DNA from: Lachnospiraceae bacterium
Lineage (GTDB): Bacteria; Bacillota; Clostridia; Lachnospirales; Lachnospiraceae
Length of the DNA: 64,000 nt
Direction: 5' to 3'
Assembly (NCBI GenBank): GCA_031280955.1
Contig: JAITGA010000015.1
Location: 9,334-73,333, forward strand
Position numbers and translations under genes: made by a program
Notes under the pieces: generated by a model
What the model was told of the DNA's origin: nothing
What the model saw: the letters and a program-made list of their open reading frames with translations, nothing else
Database searches by the model: none
Shown here: positions 9,265-35,193 of the stretch, one piece after another
Layout of the letters: each line of letters begins with the position of its first letter
Position numbering within the stretch: the stretch's first letter is position 1

Positions 9265-10104
9265 ATGCCTGAACTACCCGAAGTGGAAACTGTCCGCAGG
9301 ATGCTTGCCGCCAATATCAGCGGTTCACGTATTTTGCGGGTAGATGTTTTTTATGACAAAATCATCAGTACGGGGCAGGAGGCATTTGTCAATGCGGTAT
9401 CGGGACAAACTATCCATGCCATCAACCGGGTAGGGAAGTATTTGGTCTTTGTCCTTGATGATGTCGCTTTCATTTCCCACCTACGCATGGAGGGCAAATA
9501 TAACCTCATCGCCGCCGAGGTTGATGTGCCACTTACAAAGCATGAACATCTGGTTTTTCATTTGGCAGATGGACGTGAGCTTCGTTATCATGACACCCGC
9601 AAGTTTGGGCGGATGATGCTGACAGGGAAAGATGATTACCGTGATAGGAAGCCGCTTTCCACCCTCGCTCCAGAGCCAAGCGAAGCTACAGCGGAATATC
9701 TTTGGCTACGGGTGAGTAACAGTCGCCGTCCGTTAAAGTCGCTACTGTTGGATCAGACAGTACTGGCGGGTATCGGCAATATTTATGCCAATGAAATATG
9801 CTTGCGGGCTCGGGTTGATCCCCGCCAGATAGGAAATATGCTCACGGAGGAGATATGCGCTCGACTACTAACGGCGGCAACGACGGTATTGGCAGAAGCA
9901 GTCGCTGCCGGGGGGACGACGATTTCCAGTTTCAACAGCGGGGGAATAGATGGGCTTTTTCAAGCTCAGTTGTTGATATATGGGCAAAAGACATGTCAGG
10001 TATGTGGTGGTGAGGTGACAAGACTCACTATTGGTGGCAGAGGTACATATTTTTGCCATCATTGCCAAGCGGGGGAGGAAGAAGATGAGCAAAAATGTCA
10101 GTAA
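9265..10104 (+). CDS. mutM: Formamidopyrimidine-DNA glycosylase (Fpg/MutM)
   Basis: N-terminal MPELPEVETVRR, H2TH region, and C-terminal zinc finger CQVCGG...FCHHCQ. Confidence 0.9.
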   Translation: MPELPEVETVRRMLAANISGSRILRVDVFYDKIISTGQEAFVNAVSGQTIHAINRVGKYLVFVLDDVAFISHLRMEGKYNLIAAEVDVPLTKHEHLVFHLADGRELRYHDTRKFGRMMLTGKDDYRDRKPLSTLAPEPSEATAEYLWLRVSNSRRPLKSLLLDQTVLAGIGNIYANEICLRARVDPRQIGNMLTEEICARLLTAATTVLAEAVAAGGTTISSFNSGGIDGLFQAQLLIYGQKTCQVCGGEVTRLTIGGRGTYFCHHCQAGEEEDEQKCQ

Positions 10105-11074
10105 CAAGCTGAGGCTTCTATATTTACAAAAAATCCTCGAACAAGAAAGCGATGACAACCACCGCCTCACGAGATCACAGATCGAGACGAAGCTGGCACG
10201 TTACGGTGTCGATGCCGAACGCAAGACACTTTATAATGATATTGAAATGCTGCGGCTTTTCGGCGTGGAGGTGATAGGTGAGCCGTTAGGGAAAAGCTAT
10301 GTTTATTATATTGGCGGTCGCTTGTTTGAGTTGCCGGAGCTAAAGCTCTTGGTCGATGCCGTCCAAGCCTCCAAGTTCATTACGACCTCCAAATCCCGTA
10401 AACTCATCAAGAAGCTCACGGCTCTTACCAGTAAACATGAGGCCAAGCAGCTGGAACGTCAGGTTTTTGTTGTCAATCGTGCCAAGGTGGAGAATGAGAA
10501 AATTTACTATAGTGTCGATGCCCTTCACAATGCGATATCATCTGATGTCCGTGTGCGTTTTCAATATACCCAGTGGACGGTGGACAAGGAAATGAAAGTC
10601 AAAAAGGGTGGTGAATACTACGAGGTAAGTCCTTTTGCCTTGTTGTGGGATCATGAAAACTATTATTTGATCGCATATGAGGGTGGCGATGACAAAATCA
10701 AGCACTATCGAGTTGACAAAATCAAGGATATCAAACTGACTGCAACCGCCCGTAGTGGGTATGAAATCTTCAAAAAGCATGATATGCCGTCATATACCCG
10801 CAAGACCTTTGGGATGTTCCACGGTAACGAAGAAAATGTCGGGATATGTTTTCACGAAAGTCTGGCAGGGGTGGTCATCGACCGCTTCGGCAAGGATGTC
10901 AGACTGTCGAGAGCCGAGGAGGGTTATTATACTATTACTGTACCCATTGTCGTCAGTATGCAGTTCTTCGCTTGGGTAATCGGTATCGGTGCGGAAATGA
11001 AAATCGTCTCCCCCCCGCATGTTGTCACGATGATGAGGGATGCGCTGGCGGAGTTGACGAAGGTGTATGAGTAG
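10085..11074 (+). CDS. WYL-domain transcriptional regulator (wHTH-WYL-WCX type)
   Basis: ATG 10085 follows GGGGAGGAA. N-terminal HTH-like region and WYL core (YYLIAYEGGDDKIKHYRVDKIKDIKL). The 5' end overlaps the fpg stop by 20 nt. Confidence 0.8.
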   Translation: MSKNVSNKLRLLYLQKILEQESDDNHRLTRSQIETKLARYGVDAERKTLYNDIEMLRLFGVEVIGEPLGKSYVYYIGGRLFELPELKLLVDAVQASKFITTSKSRKLIKKLTALTSKHEAKQLERQVFVVNRAKVENEKIYYSVDALHNAISSDVRVRFQYTQWTVDKEMKVKKGGEYYEVSPFALLWDHENYYLIAYEGGDDKIKHYRVDKIKDIKLTATARSGYEIFKKHDMPSYTRKTFGMFHGNEENVGICFHESLAGVVIDRFGKDVRLSRAEEGYYTITVPIVVSMQFFAWVIGIGAEMKIVSPPHVVTMMRDALAELTKVYE

Positions 11075-23277: not shown

Positions 23278-24087
23278 CTATGGGGTGACTTTTGGCGGTA
23301 CATATGCAGTAATTTTCGGTGAAACGGCTATTTTGGAGTAAATCTCGGCATAGGTCTTGCCGGAGATATTCTCGATATAATTTGGAACAAATTGCTTGGT
23401 GACTCCGGCTTTTTTGACGATATCAACAGCTTTGTTGTAAGCGATGGCGGCCTCAACTTCACTTTCATAAGTTCCGACGGTGTAATTGCCGACAATATGA
23501 AGCTTGACCCGAAAGCGATGCTTCCCCCGCTTGGTAACTCGCAATACCCCGTTGAAACGATTGATTATTTCGATATTTTCATAGCGAAAATCATATTCAT
23601 CCCCATTCATGAAACGATAATCACGGTCTTTTACGGCATAGTTTTTGATGCCATAACGATTGAGGATATTGATTTGCATACCAAAATCACAGATGAAATA
23701 ATGACCACCCCGCTTCATTATCGCCCGTGAAGAGTAAAAAAACAAATCTTCGGCATCAAATTTGAGGATAATCCCTGGAGCGAGATGGTACTCAAAGAAT
23801 TTTTGCTTTATCATAATGGGCGTGTTGAAATATAACCCGCTTTCACGGAAGTTGAGCAAGACCACCCATTTACTATAAGGTAGAACACGATGTGATGTAT
23901 AATCATGCAACGTGATTTCCTTATCCCTGACTATCATTTTGGCTTCCAGATATGCGGCATGAGCCATGAGCATTGTCGCAAAACTGCCCAAGCTGATGTG
24001 CTTGCGCTTGACAGTAATAGAAGAGCGGTAGTGCAGCTCCTTGTTCTTTTTTCGTTGCGGATAAACGCCCGGTAATCTTGTTTCCAT
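23278..24087 (-). CDS. Protein with two AP2/ERF-like DNA-binding domains
   Basis: N-terminal LPGVYPQRKKNKELHYRSSITVKRKHISLGSFATMLMAHAAYLEA and C-terminal FRVKLHIVGNYTVGTYESEVEAAIAYNKAVD resemble bacterial AP2 domains. The start is taken at METRLPG (24087); the track ORF extends to 24123. Confidence 0.5.
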   Translation of the reverse strand: METRLPGVYPQRKKNKELHYRSSITVKRKHISLGSFATMLMAHAAYLEAKMIVRDKEITLHDYTSHRVLPYSKWVVLLNFRESGLYFNTPIMIKQKFFEYHLAPGIILKFDAEDLFFYSSRAIMKRGGHYFICDFGMQINILNRYGIKNYAVKDRDYRFMNGDEYDFRYENIEIINRFNGVLRVTKRGKHRFRVKLHIVGNYTVGTYESEVEAAIAYNKAVDIVKKAGVTKQFVPNYIENISGKTYAEIYSKIAVSPKITAYVPPKVTP

Positions 24088-24135
24088 AATGTAATTATAC
24101 ATCAGGCAAAGGGGTGATGGCAACAGCGAGCATAA

Positions 24136-24253
24136 CCTTTACTGAGGTCGGAAGAATGACACGCTTTTTTGTCATTCTTCGCACTAAGAACCTTGCAAAG
24201 CAAGGTTCGTGTGCTCTCATTGCGAGGCGGCTTTACACGCCGAAGCAATCCAT
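24136..24253 (+). repeat. Structured interspersed repeat, copy A (about 115 bp)
   Basis: Near-identical to 61248-61360 in the same orientation. Internal hairpins GAAGAATGAC/GTCATTCTTC and AACCTTGC/GCAAGGTT. It ends with the TCATTGCGAGG...CGAAGCAATCCAT module. Confidence 0.85.
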
Positions 24254-24335
24254 AGCAAAATTTATTACGCAATTTTTTTGCGCAAATTACAACTGTGCTT
24301 GCCAAAATAATTGAATCATGGTAAAGTGAAATTCG

Positions 24336-24419
24336 GCCGGCGTGTCGGAATGGCAGACGAGGCAGACTCAAAATCTGTTGTGGTTCACCCACGTGCGGGT
24401 TCAAGTCCCGCTGCCGGCA
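24336..24419 (+). tRNA. tRNA-Leu (anticodon CAA)
   Basis: Folded by hand. Acceptor GCCGGCG/TGCCGGC, D arm, anticodon stem GCAGA/TCTGT with loop CTCAAAA, long variable arm (GTGG-TTCA-CCAC), T arm GCGGG-TTCAAGT-CCCGC, discriminator A. No encoded CCA. Confidence 0.9.
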
Positions 24420-24593: not shown

Positions 24594-24761
24594 ATGAGTA
24601 CAGTAGTAAAAAACGATCATTTTAAAATGTTAGAAAAGAATCAAGCAGAGGTCAGACAACTTGTCTTAGAAGGCATAAAGCAGGTTCAAGAAGGGAAAAT
24701 ATATGACTTCAATGAAGCTTGTGATAGATTAGTGGAAAAATACGAAAATGCAAAAGAATAA
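24594..24761 (+). CDS. Putative type II antitoxin (55 aa; below the track cutoff)
   Basis: My translation is MSTVVKNDHFKMLEKNQAEVRQLVLEGIKQVQEGKIYDFNEACDRLVEKYENAKE. RBS GAGGTG. It overlaps the downstream RelE/ParE toxin start by 14 nt. Confidence 0.55.
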   Translation: MSTVVKNDHFKMLEKNQAEVRQLVLEGIKQVQEGKIYDFNEACDRLVEKYENAKE

Positions 24762-25050
24762 TGTATATATCTCTGATATTGCAAAACAAGATTTAGCTGA
24801 TGCTAGTGACTATATTGCCTATAAATTAAAGAATCCCATCGCCGCTATTAATACAGTAGAAGGGATTCGTAAACATACCAACACCTTAAGTGCTTTCCCC
24901 GAACGAAATGAATTGGACGATGATCCAGTCCTTGCAAACATTGGGATTCGCGCTGATTACTATAAAAACTATAAAATCTATTATATGATTGAAGAAAATA
25001 TTGTATTCGTTGTGCGAATTTTACATATGCTTGTTGATAGCCGCTTTTAG
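24748..25050 (+). CDS. RelE/ParE-family type II toxin
   Basis: 100 aa. ISDIAKQDLADASDYIAYKL ... YKIYYMIEENIVFVVRILHMLVD is the typical ParE/RelE fold signature. Confidence 0.78.
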   Translation: MQKNNVYISDIAKQDLADASDYIAYKLKNPIAAINTVEGIRKHTNTLSAFPERNELDDDPVLANIGIRADYYKNYKIYYMIEENIVFVVRILHMLVDSRF

Positions 25051-25106
25051 CTGTTTGAAACTTTTGGCTTAAATAAATGATAGTTTTGTTCAAAGAGGAG
25101 GATATC

Positions 25107-25655
25107 ATGTTTGGATTCAACAAGAAAAAGAAAATCAAAGAAGAAACTCCAGAAGAAAAGTTCTTTCGTGAAAATTACGATGATTTGTTCCTGCCACCGT
25201 CAGCGTTTGATGGTTATGAGATAGCTGATGATAGTAAAGAAAAGTTAACCGCTATTTTCGATATACTAACAAATGGTTTGGCAGATAAAGAAGAGATTAG
25301 TTTTGAAAGTAGATATGAGTTTGTTGATAGCTTAGTATCAATAAACTTTTTAACAAGTGACTTTGAGCAGCAGTATACTTTAACGGAGATAGTGAGTGAA
25401 CTGAATGGAGTTGCCAGAAATTTAAACTACAAAATCGAATTGTCAGAAGAAGATGTCATGCAAATAGATGATGATATCAAGAAGCAGGCAAGAGAGTATT
25501 TTACTTATATAACTCATCACGACTTAAATGTATGTTCAAAATTGTTAGAACAGCAAGGTTATGAGTTGTTTCAGGTATTCCTGGACTGTGGTGGTCTGAC
25601 GATGTCAATATTACCAAAAGAGAGAATTGAGGATTTGAAGAAATATACGAAGTAG
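25107..25655 (+). CDS. Acidic hypothetical protein
   Basis: ATG 25107 follows AAAGAGGAGGA. 182 aa with no recognisable motif; coding-like composition. Confidence 0.45.
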   Translation: MFGFNKKKKIKEETPEEKFFRENYDDLFLPPSAFDGYEIADDSKEKLTAIFDILTNGLADKEEISFESRYEFVDSLVSINFLTSDFEQQYTLTEIVSELNGVARNLNYKIELSEEDVMQIDDDIKKQAREYFTYITHHDLNVCSKLLEQQGYELFQVFLDCGGLTMSILPKERIEDLKKYTK

Positions 25656-26685: not shown

Positions 26686-27549
26686 TTATTCGTCCAGCAT
26701 CAGGGGCTTTTTCTTCGCTTTTCGTTTCAAAGCTGCGATTTGTTCACGCTCCACCTGTGATATACCCTTTTCCGGTACAGGTAAATTTTCTGGCATAGTC
26801 CCACCCAAATCCTTGATGGTCTGGCGGACCCTTTTGCCGACAGTATAGTGCGTAGTGACTGCTGCTTGCGCTCCTTGTATGTTTTCGCGTTTTAGTTTGC
26901 TCTCGGTTTGTGTAATTCGGAATAAATTTGCCGCAAGCTCTTCGCTTCCCATAAAATCAAGAATTTTCTCTTTTGGCTTCAACCCTTTTTTCGTATGTAT
27001 GTCATCAACATCAAGACCACCGTATAATCCTTTGTATCCGGCGTTTTGAAAAATTGCATATTCTGCATTCGTTATCAGTCCGGCATTGCGGGCAGCTTCG
27101 GCAAGCATCTGATTCCATTGCTTGATATTGCCGCGCACAACGAGCCGTTTGTTATCTTCATCAAGTTGATTAAAGTAATCTGCGACTTCTTGGCGTCGCG
27201 TTTGTATAGCAAAATAAGTTTGACCGAATGCGATGACTTCTTTACGCGGATCACCGTTTTGAACAACAAGGTAACAAGCATAACGGGAAAGTTCATAATC
27301 TATGACGCACCTGTTAGTTCCGCTTCCTATCTCGACCATTTTGTTGACCTCAACAAAATGGTCTTCCATGTCGAAACCACTGTTTTTACAGGAAAGCCTC
27401 GCCTTATCAAGAACCTTTGAAAAATTACGCCATTCGGTATAATCTAATTCAACGGATAGTTCACGAGCCAGCCAGTATTCACCGCCGTCATCGCGAATGT
27501 GCTTAATGTCTTCGAATCGCTTGTATTCTTTAGCTCTTAGTTCACTCAT
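26686..27549 (-). CDS. dinD: DNA damage-inducible protein D (DinD)-like
   Basis: FEDIKHIRDDGGEYWLARELSVELDYTEWRNF..VLDKARLSCKNSG ... DYELSRYACYLVVQNGDPRKEVIAFGQTYFAIQTRRQE matches the DinD family pattern as I recall it. Confidence 0.75.
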   Translation of the reverse strand: MSELRAKEYKRFEDIKHIRDDGGEYWLARELSVELDYTEWRNFSKVLDKARLSCKNSGFDMEDHFVEVNKMVEIGSGTNRCVIDYELSRYACYLVVQNGDPRKEVIAFGQTYFAIQTRRQEVADYFNQLDEDNKRLVVRGNIKQWNQMLAEAARNAGLITNAEYAIFQNAGYKGLYGGLDVDDIHTKKGLKPKEKILDFMGSEELAANLFRITQTESKLKRENIQGAQAAVTTHYTVGKRVRQTIKDLGGTMPENLPVPEKGISQVEREQIAALKRKAKKKPLMLDE

Positions 27550-27758
27550 AGCAGTCCCTCCGATAACTTATCCATTGGTTTACGACCGGGCTTATATTTG
27601 CCCGTGCGTGTTGGTTTCGGTGTATTTTCAGGTATTGCCCACGCATTGCCAAATTTCGACGAACCCTCTATTTTGCCATTCTGACAAAGCAACTGCACCT
27701 GACGCACCGATACATTCCAACGTTCCGCCATTTCCTCGGCTTTCACATATCCATTCAT
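27546..27758 (-). CDS. Excisionase/MerR-like helix-turn-helix protein
   Basis: 70 aa. AEEMAERWNVSVRQVQLLCQNGKIEG..KFGNAWAIP is a typical HTH_17-like motif. It overlaps the dinD start by 4 nt (operon). Confidence 0.65.
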   Translation of the reverse strand: MNGYVKAEEMAERWNVSVRQVQLLCQNGKIEGSSKFGNAWAIPENTPKPTRTGKYKPGRKPMDKLSEGLL

Positions 27759-27910: not shown

Positions 27911-28546
27911 TTATTTTTCTTGTAAACCTCTCTTTTCAAAATAATCTTTATGGTTTTCAAAATGATAAATATATCGTGAAATAAATGCTTTATCAGTTGA
28001 AAGAATCGGCATCCTATTAGTTCCTTGCTTGTTATATGCCACACTATTTTCCAATAGAAAATCCGTCAATAAAGCTCTATCATCGCAAATAATGTACCAA
28101 AAATCAGAAATTCTATCATATTCTACAATCGTTAGTTTTTTTATGTTCGGTGATTTTGACCATTCTTTTTTTAACGTTTCTCTTTCTGTATCAAAAAAAT
28201 CATCATGTAACTCATGATTTTTTGGTAATTTTCTCAGCATAATTATACACTCATCAATAGACAAATTCATATTATTGATAAAGTGTTGTGCCTTAGTGCT
28301 TGAGTTGGTAGCATAAATCCTTAACAAATTAATATGTCTCTTCCCATTAATAGATTCAATTTTCTCAAATAGGTTTGAATAGGCATCATTTACTTCATTA
28401 ATGATTTCAACTGCAGTTGTTATGCTTGATTTGTTTTTGTGTGTATTCATAATTTTGTTGATAATCCAATGAACAAATTGGATTGCTAGAAATAATCCCA
28501 CTCCGCTAAAAAGCCATTCTTTGTTATCTGATAACCATGTAACCAT
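27911..28546 (-). CDS. Hypothetical N-terminally membrane-anchored protein
   Basis: 211 aa. One TM helix (WLFSGVGLFLAIQFVHWII). The remainder has no motif I can name. AT-rich, and co-oriented downstream of the kinase gene. Confidence 0.45.
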   Translation of the reverse strand: MVTWLSDNKEWLFSGVGLFLAIQFVHWIINKIMNTHKNKSSITTAVEIINEVNDAYSNLFEKIESINGKRHINLLRIYATNSSTKAQHFINNMNLSIDECIIMLRKLPKNHELHDDFFDTERETLKKEWSKSPNIKKLTIVEYDRISDFWYIICDDRALLTDFLLENSVAYNKQGTNRMPILSTDKAFISRYIYHFENHKDYFEKRGLQEK

Positions 28547-28792: not shown

Positions 28793-31393
28793 TTAAAGCT
28801 GCTCAATAGTAATATTGAAGTTCCTAATAAAAAATCCATCAGATTCAATACCGCTATAAAAGACAACAGCAGATTGATTAGCGCTTAGTTCTTGCGACAC
28901 CATATACACATTATTGATATACACATCTGCAATTTTATCTTTTACATATATTTTTACAGTTGTGAAATCTTCCAGTTCTGTATTAAATATTGAAATCGGA
29001 GCTTTTGAAATAGTCGTTCCATTTCTATATAACTCAAATTGTAAATCTCTTGAACCAAAGGCTTTGGCATATTTAATATGCGGGTCGAAACGAAGGCCCA
29101 AATGGTCTGTACTGGCAATTCCAAAAGCATCTCCAAATTCATTGTCCGCATTGGTACCTAAGCATATTGTTACTAACTTCGAACGATAATTTCCTCTTTG
29201 TTTTACTTCAAACTCGACTATAAAATCGGAATAACCCTTCGGCATTATATTGAGAGCTAAATATCCTTTTTCAACTAACAAACCGTTACTACCATCAAAT
29301 TCTAGTTTACCCGACGATGACCAATTTCTTAATGGCGTCCCGCTCGTAAAACTCTCATTTAATCCTAAATATGCACTCACATCACAAACAGCCATTTCTG
29401 TTCCATCCTCAAGAGATAGAATGATCGTAGTTTTACCAGCAACTTTTGCTTCTACTTTCCCATTATTATCTACTGTAGCTATTGATGTATTATTTGACCT
29501 CCATACCAAGCTAACATTCTTAACTCCTTCAATGTTTGTGTTATATTTCAATTGCTCTGACTCCCCAATTGCAAGGTTTAGAGAATTTACATCAAGAGTA
29601 ACTTCAAATATGCTTAACAGCACACTCATAAACTTTGCAATTTCAAGATTGATTTCTTGTTCAAAAACAGGATAACCTTTTAACAAGTCTTTTAGCTCAG
29701 TTATTCCATTATCATAATCGTTTGATTCTTCTGTGTTTGTATTAATTTCAGAAATACGTGTCATTACATATTCTTTGTCCTTTGTATACATTATCTCGGT
29801 ATATTGTGTAAGAAGCGAAAGAAATTCATTGTCTACTGGTATTAGACTAAGAGCTAAGTTTAATCGGTTGATTATTTCCCCATATGCCTCTTTTGCTTCC
29901 AGTTCAGAAATAGAAGTGAGTATGTCATTTCTGTATAGCTCAATTGACTCATCTAGCTTCGACTGGGCGTTTAGATAATCATCATCCCTGTTAATAACTT
30001 TTCTTAGTTCATCTATCGCTAACATATAGTTCCTATTTGCCATAGCCTGTAAACCATTTTGATATGCCTTGTTAGAGCTTTCTAAATCGACATCTACAGA
30101 AGGTGTAGTAATTGCATCAGATAATATGTTTGCAATTGGATCATTATGATTTCCACCCGGCATAATCGATCTTAGAGCAAAAAACCCAGCCACTATAACT
30201 ATTATCGCAATAGCTACAGCTATTATAGGTTTATTTGATCTATTAGTTGATTTTAGTAGCAAAGCAGATTTTTGATTACTTACTGGAGTCATCACACTCG
30301 GCCTTGGGGTAGAACCTGGTGGCTTGATAGTCGTTTGTGTCAAAGAGGATTTTGGCCTAAATAATTGCGAAAACCTGTTATCCACTTCACACCACGGACA
30401 AGCCGATAACATCTTATAGTATTGGTGGTAAGAAACATTTTTACAGTTCTTTAGTTCATTACGTAAATTTCTTAATGCGTGATGCCAATCTACTGGAGTG
30501 GGGCGACTACTTGGGCTGAAATGACCGTCAATAAATGCCTGCTCAAATAAGTCCTGTATCTCTTTTGGCAAGATTGAAATCTCCGGTGCGTATGCCGGTA
30601 TTTTTATGTTCGGAAAACTCTGCATGAACGGAAATTCGCCTTTAATAATGTTGTCAGACGGCTGCGGAGCTACTACAGATGATTGGCTTGGAATTATTGC
30701 ACAAGCAAATGGATGGACACCATTTATAAGTAGTTGAAAAATATGAATTGATAAAGCAAAACCATCCGTATCTTGCGAAAAGGTTGGCAGCTTTGCTGTA
30801 GCTAAAGTACTGCCTCCACGCATTTTCACTTGGATTTCTCCCGGTAGATATTCAGGGATACCAACATCGCAGCGATAAGTATCATTGCCATCTTTGATAT
30901 GATAAGAATCGGTATCTAAAAAGCAAATATGCCCGGTATTTGGATTTACACTTATGTTTTTCGGATTAAAGTCACCGCATATATGTCCTGCATTATGAAC
31001 AGAATCTAACACTGCACAAAGATTTTCTGCGATAATAATGCGATTTTCCCATGTCATGTGAGGATATTTTGCAGACGAGCCATATTCATAAATGACATTC
31101 AAATCCTCACTAATATCCATCTTAGGCATAATAAAGCCAACAAACTGCCCGCTTTCATAAAGGACATCTTGTGGCCAAGCAATCTGTGACAAAACACTTT
31201 TGTCTGGTGGAAAATCAACCATCCTCACAAGTTTTTTTTCTTTCTCGAGGCTTGTCTTTCCGGGCAGATAAATTTTTGCTATCAACTTCGATTGCCCAAT
31301 AACATCAAAAATTTCGCCTTCACCACCTGTTGCAATTGGTTTTGTTGCTAGTTCGTATAATAATCCACCTTTACCTTTACACTTCATTGTCAT
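28793..31393 (-). CDS. Membrane Ser/Thr protein kinase (YegI/TerY-P-type) with Zn-ribbon-like element, TM helix, extracytoplasmic helical repeats, Big_2 and lectin/DUF1080-like jelly-roll
   Basis: Numbering follows the 866-aa ORF. Gly-loop ATGGEGEIF, Lys in LIAKIY (K40), catalytic loop HICGDFNPKN (D141/N146), LDTDS in the DFG position, and IPEYLPGE. CKNVSYHQYYKMLSACPWCE, then TM helix at aa 388-407. Big_2-like region at aa ~598-672 (LAIGESEQLKY...WRSNNTSIATVDNNGKVEAKVAGKTTII). C-terminal beta-rich region at aa ~680-866. M3 (31387) has better RBS spacing. Confidence 0.85.
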   Translation of the reverse strand: MTMKCKGKGGLLYELATKPIATGGEGEIFDVIGQSKLIAKIYLPGKTSLEKEKKLVRMVDFPPDKSVLSQIAWPQDVLYESGQFVGFIMPKMDISEDLNVIYEYGSSAKYPHMTWENRIIIAENLCAVLDSVHNAGHICGDFNPKNISVNPNTGHICFLDTDSYHIKDGNDTYRCDVGIPEYLPGEIQVKMRGGSTLATAKLPTFSQDTDGFALSIHIFQLLINGVHPFACAIIPSQSSVVAPQPSDNIIKGEFPFMQSFPNIKIPAYAPEISILPKEIQDLFEQAFIDGHFSPSSRPTPVDWHHALRNLRNELKNCKNVSYHQYYKMLSACPWCEVDNRFSQLFRPKSSLTQTTIKPPGSTPRPSVMTPVSNQKSALLLKSTNRSNKPIIAVAIAIIVIVAGFFALRSIMPGGNHNDPIANILSDAITTPSVDVDLESSNKAYQNGLQAMANRNYMLAIDELRKVINRDDDYLNAQSKLDESIELYRNDILTSISELEAKEAYGEIINRLNLALSLIPVDNEFLSLLTQYTEIMYTKDKEYVMTRISEINTNTEESNDYDNGITELKDLLKGYPVFEQEINLEIAKFMSVLLSIFEVTLDVNSLNLAIGESEQLKYNTNIEGVKNVSLVWRSNNTSIATVDNNGKVEAKVAGKTTIILSLEDGTEMAVCDVSAYLGLNESFTSGTPLRNWSSSGKLEFDGSNGLLVEKGYLALNIMPKGYSDFIVEFEVKQRGNYRSKLVTICLGTNADNEFGDAFGIASTDHLGLRFDPHIKYAKAFGSRDLQFELYRNGTTISKAPISIFNTELEDFTTVKIYVKDKIADVYINNVYMVSQELSANQSAVVFYSGIESDGFFIRNFNITIEQL

Positions 31394-31487
31394 ACCTCCA
31401 TATTTGCTTGAATTAAACTTCTAGTTTGGTTATTTATGAATAATGATTTCACCTCTTGTTACCTCGATATTAACTACCTTGCTCCCA

Positions 31488-32510
31488 TCATATAAAGTTT
31501 ATCTCAAAAACCAATTGGCTTTGATTGCAACTTATATCAAATACTGGATTACATCTATATAAAAACCAGTATTGTTCTTTCGCAATAGTGGCTACCTTAT
31601 CTATTATCCCTTCCAAATCATTTACATTTTTCACTTTTGCAATGATATTTTTCTTTCCATGCATTAAGCAGTTTTCTATTATTTTGCCGAGCTGTGTTGA
31701 GTTGTATGCCACCAATGAATTAATTGACATGAAATCATTGCCGACAGTCGTACAAACAGGGATATCATTAATAATCAAATGATCTTTTTTAATATCTTCG
31801 TCTGTAAGGTTAAAATAATCATACCGATTTGTCTTGTTCGTTAAAGTCATGTCAAAAGTAACATCCAAATGATACGCATTTCCATCAACAAAAACAATAT
31901 TCCATGCGTGTCTGTCGTTCTCTGTATTACCAAGCGGATCGGTTGCTTTTCCAAATACAACGATGCTCTTCATCCCAAGATAGTCAAGCGATAGTTTTAC
32001 AAATTTCGCAATGCCCTCACAAACGGCAGTTTTATTAAGAACCAATCCGAGTACGGAGCTTGAATAATTTCCAAACGAATAATCATATTTAAAGTTGTTC
32101 AAGCAATAATCGTGTACATATATCTCCTTATCTATATCGCTTCTTGATTTAATACCATCAAATGCAGTCAAATACTTAAGTATTTCAACTTCTATTTGCT
32201 TAACATCTTTCCGTTTATACTTGTATTCAGGCTGTATTATGATTTTGCTTTTGTATAGGTCATTTACATAGCTGAAAGATGACACATAAAATAGCAAGGG
32301 GCTATCAAGCAAAACACTTTCAAAGACCATGAAAATCTCATTCACCGGCCGCATGGGTAATTCAATTTCAATATTAAAGCTTTTAATACCCGATGCTAAT
32401 CTTTTATATACTGTTTTTTGAATATCATCTAAACAGTCATAATAGTACTGGCCTGTGTATAGGGGAGTTCTTAGTAAATTATGTAATCCTTGTTTTAATA
32501 ACATCATCAA
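31488..32510 (-). CDS. Transglutaminase-like (papain-fold Cys-His-Asp) protein, cytoplasmic
   Basis: Putative triad in the canonical order and context: TAVCEGIAKF (C164), DRHAWNIVFV (H201), YHLDVTFD (D216). No signal peptide is evident. Confidence 0.78.
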   Translation of the reverse strand: MMMLLKQGLHNLLRTPLYTGQYYYDCLDDIQKTVYKRLASGIKSFNIEIELPMRPVNEIFMVFESVLLDSPLLFYVSSFSYVNDLYKSKIIIQPEYKYKRKDVKQIEVEILKYLTAFDGIKSRSDIDKEIYVHDYCLNNFKYDYSFGNYSSSVLGLVLNKTAVCEGIAKFVKLSLDYLGMKSIVVFGKATDPLGNTENDRHAWNIVFVDGNAYHLDVTFDMTLTNKTNRYDYFNLTDEDIKKDHLIINDIPVCTTVGNDFMSINSLVAYNSTQLGKIIENCLMHGKKNIIAKVKNVNDLEGIIDKVATIAKEQYWFLYRCNPVFDISCNQSQLVFEINFI

Positions 32511-32527
32511 GCATCACTAGCCTCCGA

Positions 32528-33442
32528 CTAAGGTTTGGTATCATGTGAGAGTTCCGAATCTGCATCAGCCGTAGTGAAATTTCCTTCATCTTTATACAAG
32601 TGGGGATATGCCTTTTTGTTCCATTCCATTTGCAAGGTATCCCAATCTGGTTCTATGTAGTAGCTATCTTCTTTTAACTCAGGTAAAACTTTATCATTAA
32701 TTAGAACGATTATAGATTTATCATCGGTTATCGAAGCACATCCTTCACCATTAAGGAACTTTTCTCTTTCTTTACCTACTAACTCAATTGTTTCGGGTGA
32801 TGCACCCATGACATTATTATCCATAAAATACCTTATCAATGGAACGTATATTTCAACTGGTTGCCCTTTCAAAAGATATGGAAAAAATACATCATAAACT
32901 CCGTCAGTAGCAAGTAAAACGCTGGTAAAGTTACCTTCTGCCTTATTAATTATCCAGGTATCTTTTCCAGCCCTCAAAGGGATAACATATACATTTTCTT
33001 TTTTTTGTGGTTCCGTGATTTTCATGTAATCACCATCACTAGAAAGACCAACAATCCCACCATCACCGCTATGCCCGTAAGCAACATTTTTGCCATCATA
33101 AATTACAAGCGATAATGTGGTGTCATATTCAATTATTAAGTTACCGTCTGAAAGGGAACGTTTGTCAATTTCTTGCTCCGCATAACTAAAAGCTTTTTGA
33201 ATTATATGTAACAAGTCAGGAGCATCACTTACGGACATTATTTCTTCGCTGCAAACGCGGACAGAAGTTTCGACAGCAATGGACGAAGCAATATCAGAAT
33301 ACTTACAGCTTCCTACACCATCAGCCACAGCAGCTATTACAGTTCCATTTTCTAACCGCTCTGTTTTAATTGAATCTTGATTGCCAACTACTTTTTCCAT
33401 ATGCGAAGAGCCAATTGATGTATAATCATAAAAAAGAACCAT
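32528..33442 (-). CDS. PP2C-family Ser/Thr phosphatase
   Basis: GNQDS, AAVADGVGS, GHSGDGGI, LLATDGVYDVF and TDDKSIIVL motifs. The start is taken at MVLFYDY (RBS GGGAAGGGAGG); the track ORF extends to 33472. Confidence 0.85.
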   Translation of the reverse strand: MVLFYDYTSIGSSHMEKVVGNQDSIKTERLENGTVIAAVADGVGSCKYSDIASSIAVETSVRVCSEEIMSVSDAPDLLHIIQKAFSYAEQEIDKRSLSDGNLIIEYDTTLSLVIYDGKNVAYGHSGDGGIVGLSSDGDYMKITEPQKKENVYVIPLRAGKDTWIINKAEGNFTSVLLATDGVYDVFFPYLLKGQPVEIYVPLIRYFMDNNVMGASPETIELVGKEREKFLNGEGCASITDDKSIIVLINDKVLPELKEDSYYIEPDWDTLQMEWNKKAYPHLYKDEGNFTTADADSELSHDTKP

Positions 33443-33478
33443 GTAACCTGACCTCCCTTCCCAAACATACATAGATTC

Positions 33479-34198
33479 CTACCAATCACTTGTATCCTGC
33501 GGGTCAATTTTCTTAACTTCTTCCGGCAAGCGTGGCAATGCAGGCTTCTCGCCGACACGGCTTACAGAAATAACCTTCATACTTTCAGCAATCCACCGAA
33601 GAACTGGCGCAAAGTCAAAATCGCCAAGCTCCATGATGCGCGGATTTTCGCCTTGATGCATTGTAAGCTTTACTAATGTATTTTTATCGTAGCCAGGAAC
33701 TCCTAATGCCAAAAATCTTAGTTTACCTTGTGATCCTTTGGATTCTTCTAACTCAATCCGCTCTCTGGCACTCTCTATATCATCATTTCCATCAGGCAAG
33801 CCATCGGTAATCATGAATAACCAAGGTATGTAAACAGGCGTTCCCAATTCATTATAGAATCTGTTACGTTCTTTAAGCTGGTCAATAGCTAAGTGGATGC
33901 CTTTACTCATGGCGGTTGTGCCATCAACAGTAAGCGTTATTGGTTCCATTTGCGATATTGGTGTAAACGGAACAACTACTTTTGCCTCGCTGTTAAATGA
34001 AACAATGCAAATATCAAGACATTTTTGCACCATTTCATCGGAAGCAAGATGCTTGCGAAAATCCTTGATAGCTTGATTAAGGTTGTCAATCGCTTCGCCT
34101 TCCATTGAATATGATGTGTCTACTAAAAGAACGCAAGCCATGTGTGCACCTCCAGGATTTGCAATTTTTGGTGTACCAAAAGTTTCTTGTGATATCAT
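33479..34198 (-). CDS. von Willebrand factor A (TerY-like) domain protein
   Basis: Intact MIDAS: DTSYS (D27-x-S-x-S), GTTAMSKG and MITDGLPDG. Strong RBS GGGAGG. No signal peptide. Confidence 0.85.
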   Translation of the reverse strand: MISQETFGTPKIANPGGAHMACVLLVDTSYSMEGEAIDNLNQAIKDFRKHLASDEMVQKCLDICIVSFNSEAKVVVPFTPISQMEPITLTVDGTTAMSKGIHLAIDQLKERNRFYNELGTPVYIPWLFMITDGLPDGNDDIESARERIELEESKGSQGKLRFLALGVPGYDKNTLVKLTMHQGENPRIMELGDFDFAPVLRWIAESMKVISVSRVGEKPALPRLPEEVKKIDPQDTSDW

Positions 34199-34263
34199 TG
34201 TTTTCCTCCCTTTTTTTGTTAGTATGATATATTAGACATGTTTAAAATCATATTACTCATAGT

Positions 34264-34434
34264 TTAGCGTTCAATATTGTAGTCGCCGCGTTCATATGCT
34301 TCATAATTACCGCAATTCTTATAGTTATAATGATCTTTGCAGTAGTAATCCCTATCTCTACCATCTTTATATGTGTTATGATGCTCTGGTGTTACCCTGC
34401 AATATGAGTTAGTATAATCATAAACTGGACACAT
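34264..34434 (-). CDS. Cys/Tyr-rich micro-protein (56 aa; below the track cutoff)
   Basis: My translation is MCPVYDYTNSYCRVTPEHHNTYKDGRDRDYYCKDHYNYKNCGNYEAYERGDYNIER. AAGGAGG lies 9 nt upstream of the ATG. It is the first ORF of the co-oriented string. Confidence 0.45.
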   Translation of the reverse strand: MCPVYDYTNSYCRVTPEHHNTYKDGRDRDYYCKDHYNYKNCGNYEAYERGDYNIER

Positions 34435-34480: not shown

Positions 34481-34504
34481 TATCAAAAGGTATACCTTTT
34501 GATA
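34481..34504. promoter_or_regulatory. Perfect 24-bp palindrome TATCAAAAGGTATACCTTTTGATA (hix/res-like site 1)
   Basis: Read directly from the sequence. The half-site TATCAAAAGG resembles the TTATCAAAAACC half-site of Hin/Gin-family sites (from memory). Confidence 0.7.
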
Positions 34505-34584
34505 ATAATTCTCTGGGATGTTAAAATTTCGATTTAAGGTTGCTTTCACTCCCAAAATAGTTTAAAATAGGAAATAGTTTGAGG

Positions 34585-34610
34585 CTATCAAAAGGTATAC
34601 CTTTTGGTAG
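34585..34610. promoter_or_regulatory. 26-bp palindrome CTATCAAAAGGTATACCTTTTGGTAG (site 2, one mismatched pair)
   Basis: It has the same 20-bp core as site 1, about 105 bp away, and abuts the recombinase stop codon (34612-34614). Confidence 0.7.
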
Positions 34611-34611
34611 C

Positions 34612-35193
34612 CTACTTTTTGCCTTTCAATAGCCGCCATTCTCGTAAACGCCTGTAAAACGTGGCTTCTTTCAATCCTGTTTGCGTTAAAATATCCGAAA
34701 TTGATATATTTCCATGCTCCCATTGATTAACCAAAGAATCAAAATTTTCGGGGAGCTTTTTGGTGGGGCGGCCAAGATGCACACCCCGTGCTCGTGCCGC
34801 CGCAATACCTTCTCGCTGACGTTGTAAGAGATATTCTCTTTCCAATTCTGATACCGCTCCAAATACCGTCAACATAAACTTGCCAGTAGGTGTAGACGTG
34901 TTGATATTCTCTTTTTGACTTATAAATTTCACATTTTTTGCAGTTAGTTTATCTATCAAAACCAATAAATCCCGCGTGTTTCTGGCAAAACGACTTACCG
35001 ATTCAACTATAATAGTATCGCCGCTTTTTGCAGTAGTCATGAGTTTTTGAAGTTCTGGACGTGCCATATTTTTTCCGCTTAACTTGTCGGTAAAAATATT
35101 TTCCAACGGGATTTTCAGCTCGGCCATTGCTATGATTTGTCTATCTGTGCATTGTTCGGTACAGCTAACGCGAATATACGCAAATATTGCCAT
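34612..35193 (-). CDS. Small serine recombinase (resolvase/invertase family)
   Basis: 193 aa. Catalytic YIRVSCTEQ (Ser10), VESVSRFARN, E-helix, GRPTK hinge and a C-terminal HTH (ISISDILTQTGLKEATFYRRL). Confidence 0.9.
   Translation of the reverse strand: MAIFAYIRVSCTEQCTDRQIIAMAELKIPLENIFTDKLSGKNMARPELQKLMTTAKSGDTIIVESVSRFARNTRDLLVLIDKLTAKNVKFISQKENINTSTPTGKFMLTVFGAVSELEREYLLQRQREGIAAARARGVHLGRPTKKLPENFDSLVNQWEHGNISISDILTQTGLKEATFYRRLREWRLLKGKK

Follow-up and report, generated by a model that had tools for sequence, protein, structure and literature searches.

A putative conflict-type operon built on the YegL/PphC/YegI triad, with a TglA-like partner, a four-cysteine micro-protein and a candidate recombinase switch, in a Lachnospiraceae genome

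Introduction

The YegL-PphC-YegI or 'TerY-P' phosphorylation triad, which combines a vWA protein, a PP2C phosphatase and a Ser/Thr kinase, was defined by comparative genomics (Anantharaman, Iyer & Aravind 2012, as summarized in PMC10542128), and the triad kinases are described in that summary with a C-terminal zinc ribbon. Here, we analyzed a five-gene operon that contains such a triad, located in a 64,000-nt contig stretch (hereafter, the window) of a termite-gut Lachnospiraceae metagenome-assembled genome (MAG); its vWA protein is deposited at NCBI as MDR2546719.1 and carries the JGI name 'YegL'. The operon resembles E. coli yegL-pphC-yegI in the adjacency of the three genes, in the vWA protein with its metal ion-dependent adhesion site (MIDAS), in the PP2C protein and in the kinase with a C-terminal zinc-ribbon motif, all three proteins being homologous to their E. 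coli counterparts. E. coli YegI, an active Mn/Mg-dependent Ser/Thr kinase with the motifs VGDxxQxS and DSD, also shares with the window kinase an unusual G-D catalytic loop and a D-[ST]-D motif in place of DFG (bioRxiv 10.1101/819920). Compared with the E. coli triad, the window adds a transglutaminase-fold (TG) gene between phosphatase and kinase, a micro-protein gene at the head of the operon and, upstream, a recombinase gene with paired sites. The kinases differ as well, as YegI is reported to span the membrane twice and to have no extracytoplasmic sensor (bioRxiv 10.1101/819920), whereas the window kinase is predicted to be single-pass with an ectodomain of ~460 aa.

The TerY-P anti-phage defense reported by Gao et al. 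2020 (as cited in PMC10542128) has in common with the window the combination of vWA, PP2C and Ser/Thr kinase and the location in variable genomic islands. The differences are that the kinase of the validated versions is described with an oligonucleotide/oligosaccharide-binding (OB) fold (PMC10542128), whereas the window kinase has a zinc-ribbon-like motif, a transmembrane segment and an ectodomain, and that the window adds two conserved genes (TG and micro-protein) and gives no PADLOC TerY match. Another comparison is with the PrkC/PknB kinases and their phosphatases PrpC/PstP, which are likewise single-pass proteins with an extracytoplasmic ligand-binding domain and a PP2C gene alongside. The window kinase differs from these by its divergent, YegI-type catalytic domain, with neither a Pfam Pkinase match nor PASTA domains, and by its linked vWA, TG and micro-protein genes in an island instead of a division or cell-wall locus.

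For the two additions that are not part of the described triad, the closest known relatives are of other kinds. The TG protein resembles Streptococcus pyogenes TglA (PDB 9crn, annotated 'transglutaminase-like domain-containing protein') over its full-length fold, with an N-terminal helical domain followed by the TG core, although the two are just 14% identical in the Foldseek alignment. As for the recombinase, invertible promoter switches include E. coli fimS with FimB/FimE, the Mpi-type serine invertases of Bacteroides, and the hix/gix sites of Hin/Gin. In these switches, a small recombinase is likewise found beside a short, site-bounded segment directly upstream of the operon, and the sizes of the recombinases match (193 aa for the serine recombinase of the window and 190-206 aa for the tyrosine recombinases of related loci). 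The window half-site TATCAAAAGG also resembles hix/gix half-sites (TTATCAAAAACC). In contrast with typical invertons, the segment in the window is shorter (~105 bp), neither an enhancer nor a Fis site was identified, and the NCBIfam invertase models stay below threshold.

Results

The triad genes are homologous to E. coli yegL, pphC and yegI

The operon consists of five co-oriented minus-strand open reading frames (ORFs) in the order micro-protein, vWA, PP2C, TG, kinase, separated by gaps of 65, 6, 17, and 94 nt, with a strong Shine-Dalgarno sequence before the micro-protein and before the vWA gene. All five were present where the first-pass annotation of this DNA had placed them; its gaps of 65, 17, and 94 nt hold, while the 36 nt that it gave between vWA and PP2C applies only if PP2C starts at the internal Met11. 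The window proteins were searched against Pfam, NCBIfam, and PADLOC models, and the E. coli K-12 yegI-yegL region was used as the source of the prototype proteins for direct comparison. Related loci, designated by L numbers (L001 and so on), provided the homologues for the alignments.

The vWA protein (33479-34198, minus strand, 239 aa; Pfam VWA 7e-7 and VWA_2 5e-7) is 35% identical to E. coli YegL (E = 6e-32). It has a complete MIDAS, since D27, S29, S31, T95, and D132 are invariant in the alignment of module homologues, and a hydropathy scan found no hydrophobic segment in it. The PP2C phosphatase (32528-33472, minus strand, 314 aa; PP2C_2 2.5e-25) is 23% identical to PphC (E = 6e-7), and its metal-binding motifs D33, D51-G52, D190-G191, and D250-D251 are invariant among homologues. 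The kinase (28793-31393, minus strand, 866 aa) contains at residues 1-340 (30374-31393, minus strand) a YegI-type Ser/Thr kinase domain with a zinc-ribbon-like motif, and residues 14-340 align with YegI at 30% identity over 346 aa (E = 6e-47), CPWC motif included. It shows a GxGxxG motif, K40, and a GDFNPKN catalytic loop, with DTD replacing DFG; G23, G24, G26, K40, D141, N143, D160, D162, and C317 are invariant among homologues. The putative zinc-ribbon-like motif C-x-H-x-CPWC (C317...H...C332-P-W-C335) aligns with the CPWC of YegI.

These results bear out most of what the first-pass annotation had claimed for the larger proteins, namely the likeness of the three genes to E. coli yegL-pphC-yegI, an intact MIDAS, a complete set of PP2C metal-binding motifs, and, by Pfam, the VWA, PP2C, Transglut_core, and Big_2 domains. 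Its kinase call came out mixed, as Pfam returned nothing for the isolated kinase domain, even at E <= 10, and the assignment is backed instead by the homology to YegI, by matches to PDB kinases at 1e-4, and by homologues that score above the Pkinase gathering score. As judged by homology, the vWA, PP2C, and kinase genes are members of the YegL/PphC/YegI triad of comparative genomics.

The TG gene is a recurrent partner of the triad

The TG gene (31488-32510, minus strand) encodes a cytoplasmic, TglA-like protein of 340 aa that matches Transglut_core with E = 1.7e-6 and a score of 28.7 bits against a cut-off of 23. The Cys164-His201-Asp216 catalytic triad, which had been described as intact, is invariant in 34 sequences. 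Homologues of the protein number 413 at E <= 1e-3; a scan restricted to one genome per species gave 503 TG relatives, and the loci around the best 79 were analyzed, module gene families being recognized in them with hidden Markov models built from those families.

The order vWA-PP2C-TG-kinase is found in at least nine other genomes (L007, L014, L015, L016, L027, L032, L034, L050, and L068) that are labeled Treponema, Clostridia, and Bacteroides (L007 as Treponema and L016 as Murdochiella massiliensis), and the same four families occur in other gene orders in L004/L008, L009, L011, L019, L022, L033, and L039. A neighbor-joining tree divides the TG family cleanly in two, a module clade and a housekeeping clade. 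Of the 40 members of the former, 22 lie within 7 kb of two or more triad genes and eight more have a pair of TraG-like ATPases, the remaining members being mostly on short contigs. Members of the housekeeping clade never have triad or ATPase neighbors and adjoin rpsI, truA, and ecf transporter genes. The neighborhood comparison that had been proposed as a check on this gene thus found the TG gene recurring with triads. Judged by these neighborhoods, the gene is no chance insertion and has been conserved as a partner of the triad within one clade of the family.

The housekeeping clade is large and includes sequences from Lacrimispora, Oscillospiraceae, and their relatives. At L021, L024, L026, L035, L070, and L072 (TG at ~10000-11000) its neighborhood of rpsI, truA, and EcfA/EcfT genes is conserved, with no kinase, vWA, or PP2C genes nearby.

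The AlphaFold2 model of the TG protein has a predicted local distance difference test (pLDDT) score of 91.8, and its top match in Foldseek is S. pyogenes TglA (9crn; E = 2.3e-19, TM-score 0.83, 361 columns), which a profile of the window family also matches by sequence (E = 1.3e-14). In our literature search, we found no paper on S. pyogenes TglA or PDB 9crn, no biochemical account of this subfamily, and no paper that combines TerY-P with a transglutaminase, although a mention in the 2012 Ter paper (PMC4104200) is possible.

The micro-protein belongs to a family of small four-cysteine proteins

The first gene of the operon (34264-34434, minus strand) is preceded by a strong ribosome-binding site, AAGGAGG, and encodes 56 aa with four Cys and 11 Tyr, with the motif MCP..C[RK]VTP..C..CGNYEA..RGDYxxER. 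Twenty homologues (E = 1e-29 to 2e-15) came from a profile search; almost all of them have exactly 56 aa, and in these homologues M1, C2, P3, C12, V14, T15, P16, C32, C41, N43, Y44, D51, Y52, and R56 are invariant. A metagenome scan found 157 relatives. Eighty unique sequences fall into two subtypes, one of 56 aa ending in RGDYKIER and one of 61 aa ending in SGSNYKGK, with CP-x8-C-..TP..-C-..-CGNYEA in common. Among the contigs listed, most carry JGI prefixes such as Ga0099364 and Ga0123356 that are shared with MAG titles from the TG scan; from the MAG naming, we take these series to be termite-gut samples. The family has no match in Pfam, NCBIfam, or PADLOC. The gene was apparently not called by NCBI in this MAG, and exact copies of the sequence come from JGI and Logan only.

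Micro-protein genes are found in several operon contexts, namely after a TraG-like ATPase gene, before vWA-PP2C-TG, and before a GrpE-HSP70-HSP70/vWA operon. At L087, a micro-protein-Zn-ribbon-vWA-PP2C-TG-...-kinase operon begins with a 56-aa ORF sharing 43% identity with the micro-protein of the window. We counted neighbors within 5 kb after removing duplicates and keeping loci flanked by 2.5 kb or more on each side, 32 in all. YegI-like kinases were the most frequent (14/32 loci), followed by XRE-type helix-turn-helix (HTH) proteins at nine loci, recombinases at eight, TG at six, and vWA and HSP70 at four each. The first-pass annotation had called this gene a Cys/Tyr-rich leader micro-ORF; its composition stands and the term 'leader' does not, as the family is conserved and occurs in many operon contexts. 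As its conservation indicates, the gene encodes a stand-alone family of four-Cys proteins and no leader peptide. The product is presumably a zinc-binding mini-protein that may serve as substrate or adaptor of YegI-type kinases.

At L093 8775-18565 (= L094, L120), a tyrosine recombinase gene with inverted repeats is followed by an operon in which the micro-protein gene comes first and genes for GrpE, HSP70, an HSP70-vWA fusion, two unknown proteins, and an ABC ATPase come after it. The E. coli gene yegD, of the HSP70 family, adjoins yegI. The L093 operon and the position of yegD hint that YegI kinases, vWA proteins, and HSP70 may be connected more widely.

A small serine recombinase with paired palindromes lies upstream of the operon

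Immediately upstream of the operon is a gene for a small serine recombinase (34612-35193, minus strand, 193 aa; Pfam Resolvase 3.2e-39), consisting of a catalytic domain and a C-terminal HTH. It has the size of Hin, Gin, and resolvases, and its NCBIfam matches, including that to the Mpi invertase family (8e-19), are all below threshold. Two 24-bp palindromes lie between the recombinase stop and the start of the micro-protein gene. The recombinase-proximal one, TACCAAAAGGTA/TACCTTTTGATA (34586-34609), is the center of a 32-bp palindrome (34582-34613) that runs into the stop codon of the recombinase gene; the operon-proximal one, TATCAAAAGGTA/TACCTTTTGATA (34481-34504), is perfect and lies 46 nt upstream of the micro-protein start. 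The sequence TATCAAAAGGTA/TACCTTTTGATA has these two copies and no other in the window, with 0 expected by chance, so that the recombinase with paired palindromes noted in the first reading of this DNA is upheld. Together with a plus-strand T-run, the extended palindrome (34582-34613) also forms a hairpin resembling an intrinsic terminator, for transcription running antisense into the recombinase gene.

The 81-nt segment between the sites (34505-34585), a candidate for inversion, has promoter-like elements in both directions, which are consensus matches only: TTGATA-16-TATTTT on the minus strand (34591..34564), toward the operon, and TTGATA-17-TAAAAT with a TG extension on the plus strand (34499..34527), toward the recombinase. 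Each palindrome contributes the TTGATA -35 box of the inward promoter-like element, and the weaker of the two elements now faces the operon.

Homologous small serine recombinases occupy the same position upstream of micro-protein genes at L095, L128, L142, L152, and L157. Two sites of ~24 bp, each with a 12+12 geometry, were found at the last four of these loci, the first abutting the recombinase stop and the second 122-214 nt further. The cores of the two sites are reverse-complementary (TCTA/TAGA, GTGTAC/GTACAC, TAAA/TTTA, and, nearly, CAAA/TTTA), exactly in L142, L152, and L157 and nearly so in L128, which makes them appear like inversion sites and unlike res subsites. At other loci (L087, L093/L120, L004, L114, and L144) the recombinase is of the tyrosine type, with 190-206 aa, and inverted repeats of 24-39 nt flank 107-253 nt upstream of the first gene, in the same position as the window sites. 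The L093 contig carries the 206-aa tyrosine recombinase twice; the additional copy (~2355-2975) has a repeat-bounded segment of its own (L120 1297-1518), with 77% identity to the other segment, so that this contig appears to hold two such switches.

From this arrangement, we slightly favor the view that the recombinase and its paired sites constitute an invertible switch, which would confer phase variation. The recombinase probably belongs to the control of the system and is more than a mere neighbor.

The kinase is predicted to be a receptor with a variable ectodomain

The hydropathy scan found one hydrophobic segment in the kinase, at about residues 385-403, and none in the other four proteins. 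This single transmembrane segment (about residues 385-405; 30179-30232, minus strand) is preceded by basic residues, and from the positive-inside rule the kinase is predicted to have its N-terminus inside and its C-terminus outside; the single segment fits a cytoplasmic kinase domain and an external C-terminal half of ~460 aa. After the zinc-ribbon motif follow the transmembrane segment, a helical region, a Big_2 immunoglobulin-like domain (residues 598-671; 29381-29602, minus strand; Pfam 3.8e-12), and a C-terminal region of ~190 aa (28796-29377, minus strand), with no OB-fold. The ectodomain had been described as Big_2 plus a lectin-like or DUF1080 domain. The Big_2 part was confirmed; the lectin-like call for the C-terminal region is unconfirmed, because its match to 3keto-disac_hyd (formerly DUF1080) is sub-threshold (E = 0.052) and no sequence match to it was found in the PDB.

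Paralogous kinases have varied ectodomains, with Big_2, NPCBM, fn3, DUF6273, or TPR domains, or none. Tandem arrays of two or three YegI-like kinases are present at L087 10509-17011, L091 8570-13687, and L030 1877-6196, where the kinases have a common catalytic domain and differing ectodomains (none, DUF6273, NPCBM, fn3, or YfiO/TPR-like). These arrays look like a diversifying receptor repertoire.

The closest relatives of the TG gene belong to a fuller cassette

The closest relatives of the window TG, at 55-59% identity, belong to a fuller cassette composed of TG, a ~422-aa weakly TraG-like protein, a ~60-aa four-Cys protein, a variable gene, and a ~438-aa TrwB/TraG/HerA-type ATPase. This cassette is often accompanied by vWA-PP2C and by one, two, or three YegI-like kinases. 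The 422-aa protein is a degenerate paralogue of the TraG/VirD4-like ATPase. As the closest TG relatives carry this ATPase-containing cassette, the window operon can be seen as a reduced form of it. The four-gene form that has no ATPase also occurs at L007, L027, L032, L034, and L068.

The ~60-aa protein defines a second micro-protein family, with the motif C-x3-WC-x8-10-C-x2-C...VILK.R (L086 10154-10336, L088 10302-10484, L089 6039-6215, L001 10317-10502, and L087 10297-10494), always located between the 422-aa TraG-like paralogue and the next cassette gene. It has no Pfam matches on record and is absent from the window.

At L014 (275-5797), L015 (1565-6952), L016, and L050, from human, mouse, and rabbit gut Clostridia, genes are added on both sides. 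The upstream additions are an integrase, an XRE HTH protein, a SUKH-1 immunity protein, a Tox-GHH (HNH/EndoVII) nuclease, and two TraG-like ATPases; downstream are a DedA/VTT membrane protein and a DUF5685 protein. The whole arrangement looks like a complete integrative element.

The operon lies in a low-GC island, and its relatives lie among defense and conflict genes

The island, at about 23.3-35.4 kb of the window, has a GC content of 0.33-0.40 against ~0.47, and the module sits at its edge. The island is flanked by Rnf/GH25 genes and Asp23/FakA genes, and no boundary repeats of at least 10 nt were found between ~23.2 kb and ~35.4 kb. The earlier description of an AT-rich island with a toxin-antitoxin gene and dinD was correct, as ParE and DinD were both found. 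The DinD homologue (26686-27549, minus strand) matches NCBIfam PRK11525 (8e-126), contains a Bro-N domain, and matches the PADLOC candidate-defense model PDC-S13 (1.9e-115); at its start there is a 4-nt overlap with the end of a 70-aa ORF resembling HTH_17 and excisionases (27546-27758). The ParE-family toxin ORF (24748-25050, plus strand) has neighbors at 23278-24404 (minus strand) and 25077-25655 (plus strand). The ORFs of 281, 100, and 192 aa adjoining ParE gave no Pfam match, and among the island genes no antitoxin for ParE was identified.

A 211-aa ORF (orf211, 27911-28546, minus strand) with one N-terminal transmembrane segment lies 246 nt downstream of the kinase and has a weak match to PADLOC PDC-M43A (7e-4). 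It was considered as a sixth component and rejected, no homologue being present in any related locus. Its layout, an N-terminal transmembrane segment and ~200 aa, is that of the sequence-unrelated genes intervening between micro-protein and vWA at L091 and L097.

Elsewhere, relatives of the module adjoin SIR2-TPR, CBASS SMODS/SLATT, AbiC, HepT/nucleotidyltransferase, and integrase genes, and Tox-GHH with SUKH, and the module is patchily distributed across phylum-level labels among co-resident gut taxa. IMG/VR contained 0 relatives of the micro-protein and one of the TG. A phage or plasmid origin was also considered and rejected, since viral contigs are nearly free of the module, phage records give only weak matches (to a TglA fragment and the kinase domain), and so do plasmid records (to TG and TglA). 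The first-pass annotation had gone further and linked the operon to the validated TerY-P defense system. Membership in that system was not supported: no TerY-named PADLOC model matched the window proteins even at E <= 10, a negative that is uninformative because the models are narrow and of the E. coli prototypes only YegL matches TerY, at E = 0.032, and the kinase has no OB-fold. From the island, the neighbors, the taxonomic spread, the variable kinase ectodomains, and the near-absence from viral contigs, we infer a role in conflict or defense.

Discussion

A tentative model for the operon

We propose that the operon represents, with its five genes, a reduced version of a conflict-type signaling system that recurs in other genomes and is built on the YegL/PphC/YegI triad, with phase-variable expression and the TG protein as output, a reading to which we assign a probability of roughly 45%. 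In this model, the recombinase would invert the ~105-bp segment between the palindromes and so swap the promoter that faces the operon, making its expression phase-variable. With its Big_2-containing ectodomain, the single-pass receptor kinase would detect a cue outside the cytoplasm, be it a phage, a competitor, or an envelope glycan, and then autophosphorylate, and kinase and PP2C would together set the phospho-state of cytoplasmic partners. The vWA protein may be an adaptor whose MIDAS depends on phosphorylated or acidic ligands, and the micro-protein may be a zinc-bound substrate or adaptor of the kinase, with Thr15-Pro16 and the conserved tail, which is structurally unconfident, as candidate points of contact. 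The TG protein, as output, would cleave, cross-link, or deamidate proteins of the cell or of an invader, leading to growth arrest or interference. In the fuller relatives, this core is joined by the TraG/VirD4-like ATPase pair and, in some loci, by the GHH nuclease toxin and SUKH immunity protein.

Several observations weigh against this proposal. No PADLOC or other defense model matches the vWA, PP2C, TG, or micro-protein, and E. coli YegI and PphC have no known defense phenotype (bioRxiv 10.1101/819920). The window lacks the ATPase genes of its closest TG relatives and could be a decayed remnant. The AlphaFold2 model of the micro-protein is of low confidence (pLDDT 56, and <50 in the conserved C-terminal tail), for which reason it was kept out of the fold search. 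The RGD motif is missing from the 61-aa subtype; because of this, and because vWA genes are nearby in only 4/32 loci, the idea that the RGD of the micro-protein docks into the vWA MIDAS was downgraded. For the switch, the regional count of promoter-like matches is not above that of shuffled sequences, the distance between the site centers (34493-34597, ~105 bp) is short for inversion, and the TATA cores of the window sites are symmetric, so that their relative orientation cannot be read. Moreover, duplicate contigs contained no flipped copies of the candidate switches, all having the same orientation, and the flipped junction of the window, GGCTACCAAAAGGTATACCTTTTGATAATAATTCTCTGG, is absent from metagenome contigs, assemblies being a weak test of this.

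Alternative readings of the operon and of the palindromes

One alternative is that the operon serves envelope or cell-surface homeostasis, with wall or glycan sensing in the manner of PrkC/PrpC and with TG and vWA as housekeeping-type factors. The ectodomains of the family, being of glycan- or surface-binding types (Big_2, NPCBM, fn3), an Amidase_2 gene beside one paralogue, the E. coli proteins with no known defense role, and the large paralogous TG clade in core-gene neighborhoods would all agree with it. We nevertheless regard it as unlikely, given the patchy distribution across phylum-level labels, the low-GC island with toxin-antitoxin genes and recombinases, the relatives among CBASS, SIR2, AbiC, and toxin-immunity genes, and the module TG proteins forming a clade apart from the housekeeping one; phase-variable control is also commoner for surface and conflict functions than for core homeostasis. 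Less probable still is that the genes are cargo or machinery of a mobile element (for transfer, exclusion, or maintenance) that serves the TraG/VirD4-like translocase, the window being a decayed remnant. Such a role is suggested by the TrwB/TraG/HerA-type ATPase and its degenerate paralogue beside the closest TG relatives, by integrases and recombinases at many loci, and by the ATPases missing from the window. Against it, all catalytic and binding residues of the four larger proteins are intact in the window, the ATPase-less four-gene form recurs in at least five further genomes (the loci listed above), and no relaxase, type IV secretion channel, or replication genes were seen in the inspected loci. 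We also considered a cluster resembling those for ribosomally synthesized and post-translationally modified peptides, in which the micro-protein would be the precursor, the kinase would phosphorylate Thr/Ser, and the papain-fold TG would act as leader peptidase. A small Cys/Thr-containing peptide gene does head an operon with a kinase and a cysteine-protease-fold enzyme, and the kinase weakly resembles the kinase domains of lanthionine synthetases (NCBIfam 1.8e-5, 23 bits against a cut-off of 650). The cluster has no lyase, cyclase, radical-SAM, or exporter genes, however, and the micro-protein is conserved from end to end and its four Cys are invariant, a pattern typical of folded proteins that bind zinc and unlike that of a leader with a variable core; its neighbors are many and unrelated, TG being within 5 kb at only six of the 32 loci. 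We judge this the least credible of the explanations, and highly unlikely.

For the palindromes, the alternative is that they are res subsites of a resolvase, or operators, so that the recombinase with its HTH would resolve multimers or repress the operon with no phase variation. In some small serine recombinases (Tn3/γδ, Sin, and β), res sites double as operators. Resolvases exist in this size class, and the short distance between the window sites, their symmetric cores, and the failure to find a flipped copy among duplicate and metagenome contigs count in favor of this explanation as much as they count against inversion. The sister loci point the other way. Their sites keep the same 12+12 geometry at L128, L142, L152, and L157, while res subsites vary in spacing, and their asymmetric cores are mutually reverse-complementary, as those of inversion sites would be; unrelated tyrosine recombinases of FimB/E size (190-206 aa) have classical inverted repeats at the same position. 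We therefore consider res sites or operators a possible but rather unlikely explanation, and retain a putative invertible switch as the preferred reading of the palindromes.

Significance

The YegL/PphC/YegI triad itself is known. Relative to the literature that we found, and the 2012 Ter paper aside, three features of the system are new, namely the clade-specific TglA-like partner, the four-Cys micro-protein family, and, as a candidate, the recombinase switches. The triad is widespread and one of its forms was shown to give phage defense, and in the CoCoNuT papers and the YegI preprint no input, substrates, or output of the triad are identified. The variant in the window offers candidates for all of these, with the extracytoplasmic domain as input, the micro-protein as substrate or adaptor, and the TG protein as output, and with these candidates the logic of the triad becomes testable with a five-gene construct. 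The 56-aa four-Cys protein is a new family of small proteins, and the link with the module gives a genomic context to the solved fold of TglA, for which we found no published function.

If the switches are indeed invertons, they would be a further example of conflict systems under phase variation in gut Clostridia, one in which serine and tyrosine recombinases have been recruited convergently. A broader view, which we hold to be doubtful, is that the operon is the minimal form of a so far unrecognized, phase-variable, outward-sensing immune or conflict family. Arrays of YegI-type receptor kinases with diversifying ectodomains would detect contact with phages or competitors at the cell surface and signal through a PP2C/vWA switch and a zinc micro-protein, as dedicated substrate or adaptor of the kinases, to a TglA-like enzyme and, in the fuller versions, to a TraG-like translocase and a nuclease toxin, with invertons turning all of it on and off. 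Should this outward-sensing kinase-array view prove true, the family would be the counterpart in bacteria of innate immunity by receptor kinases.

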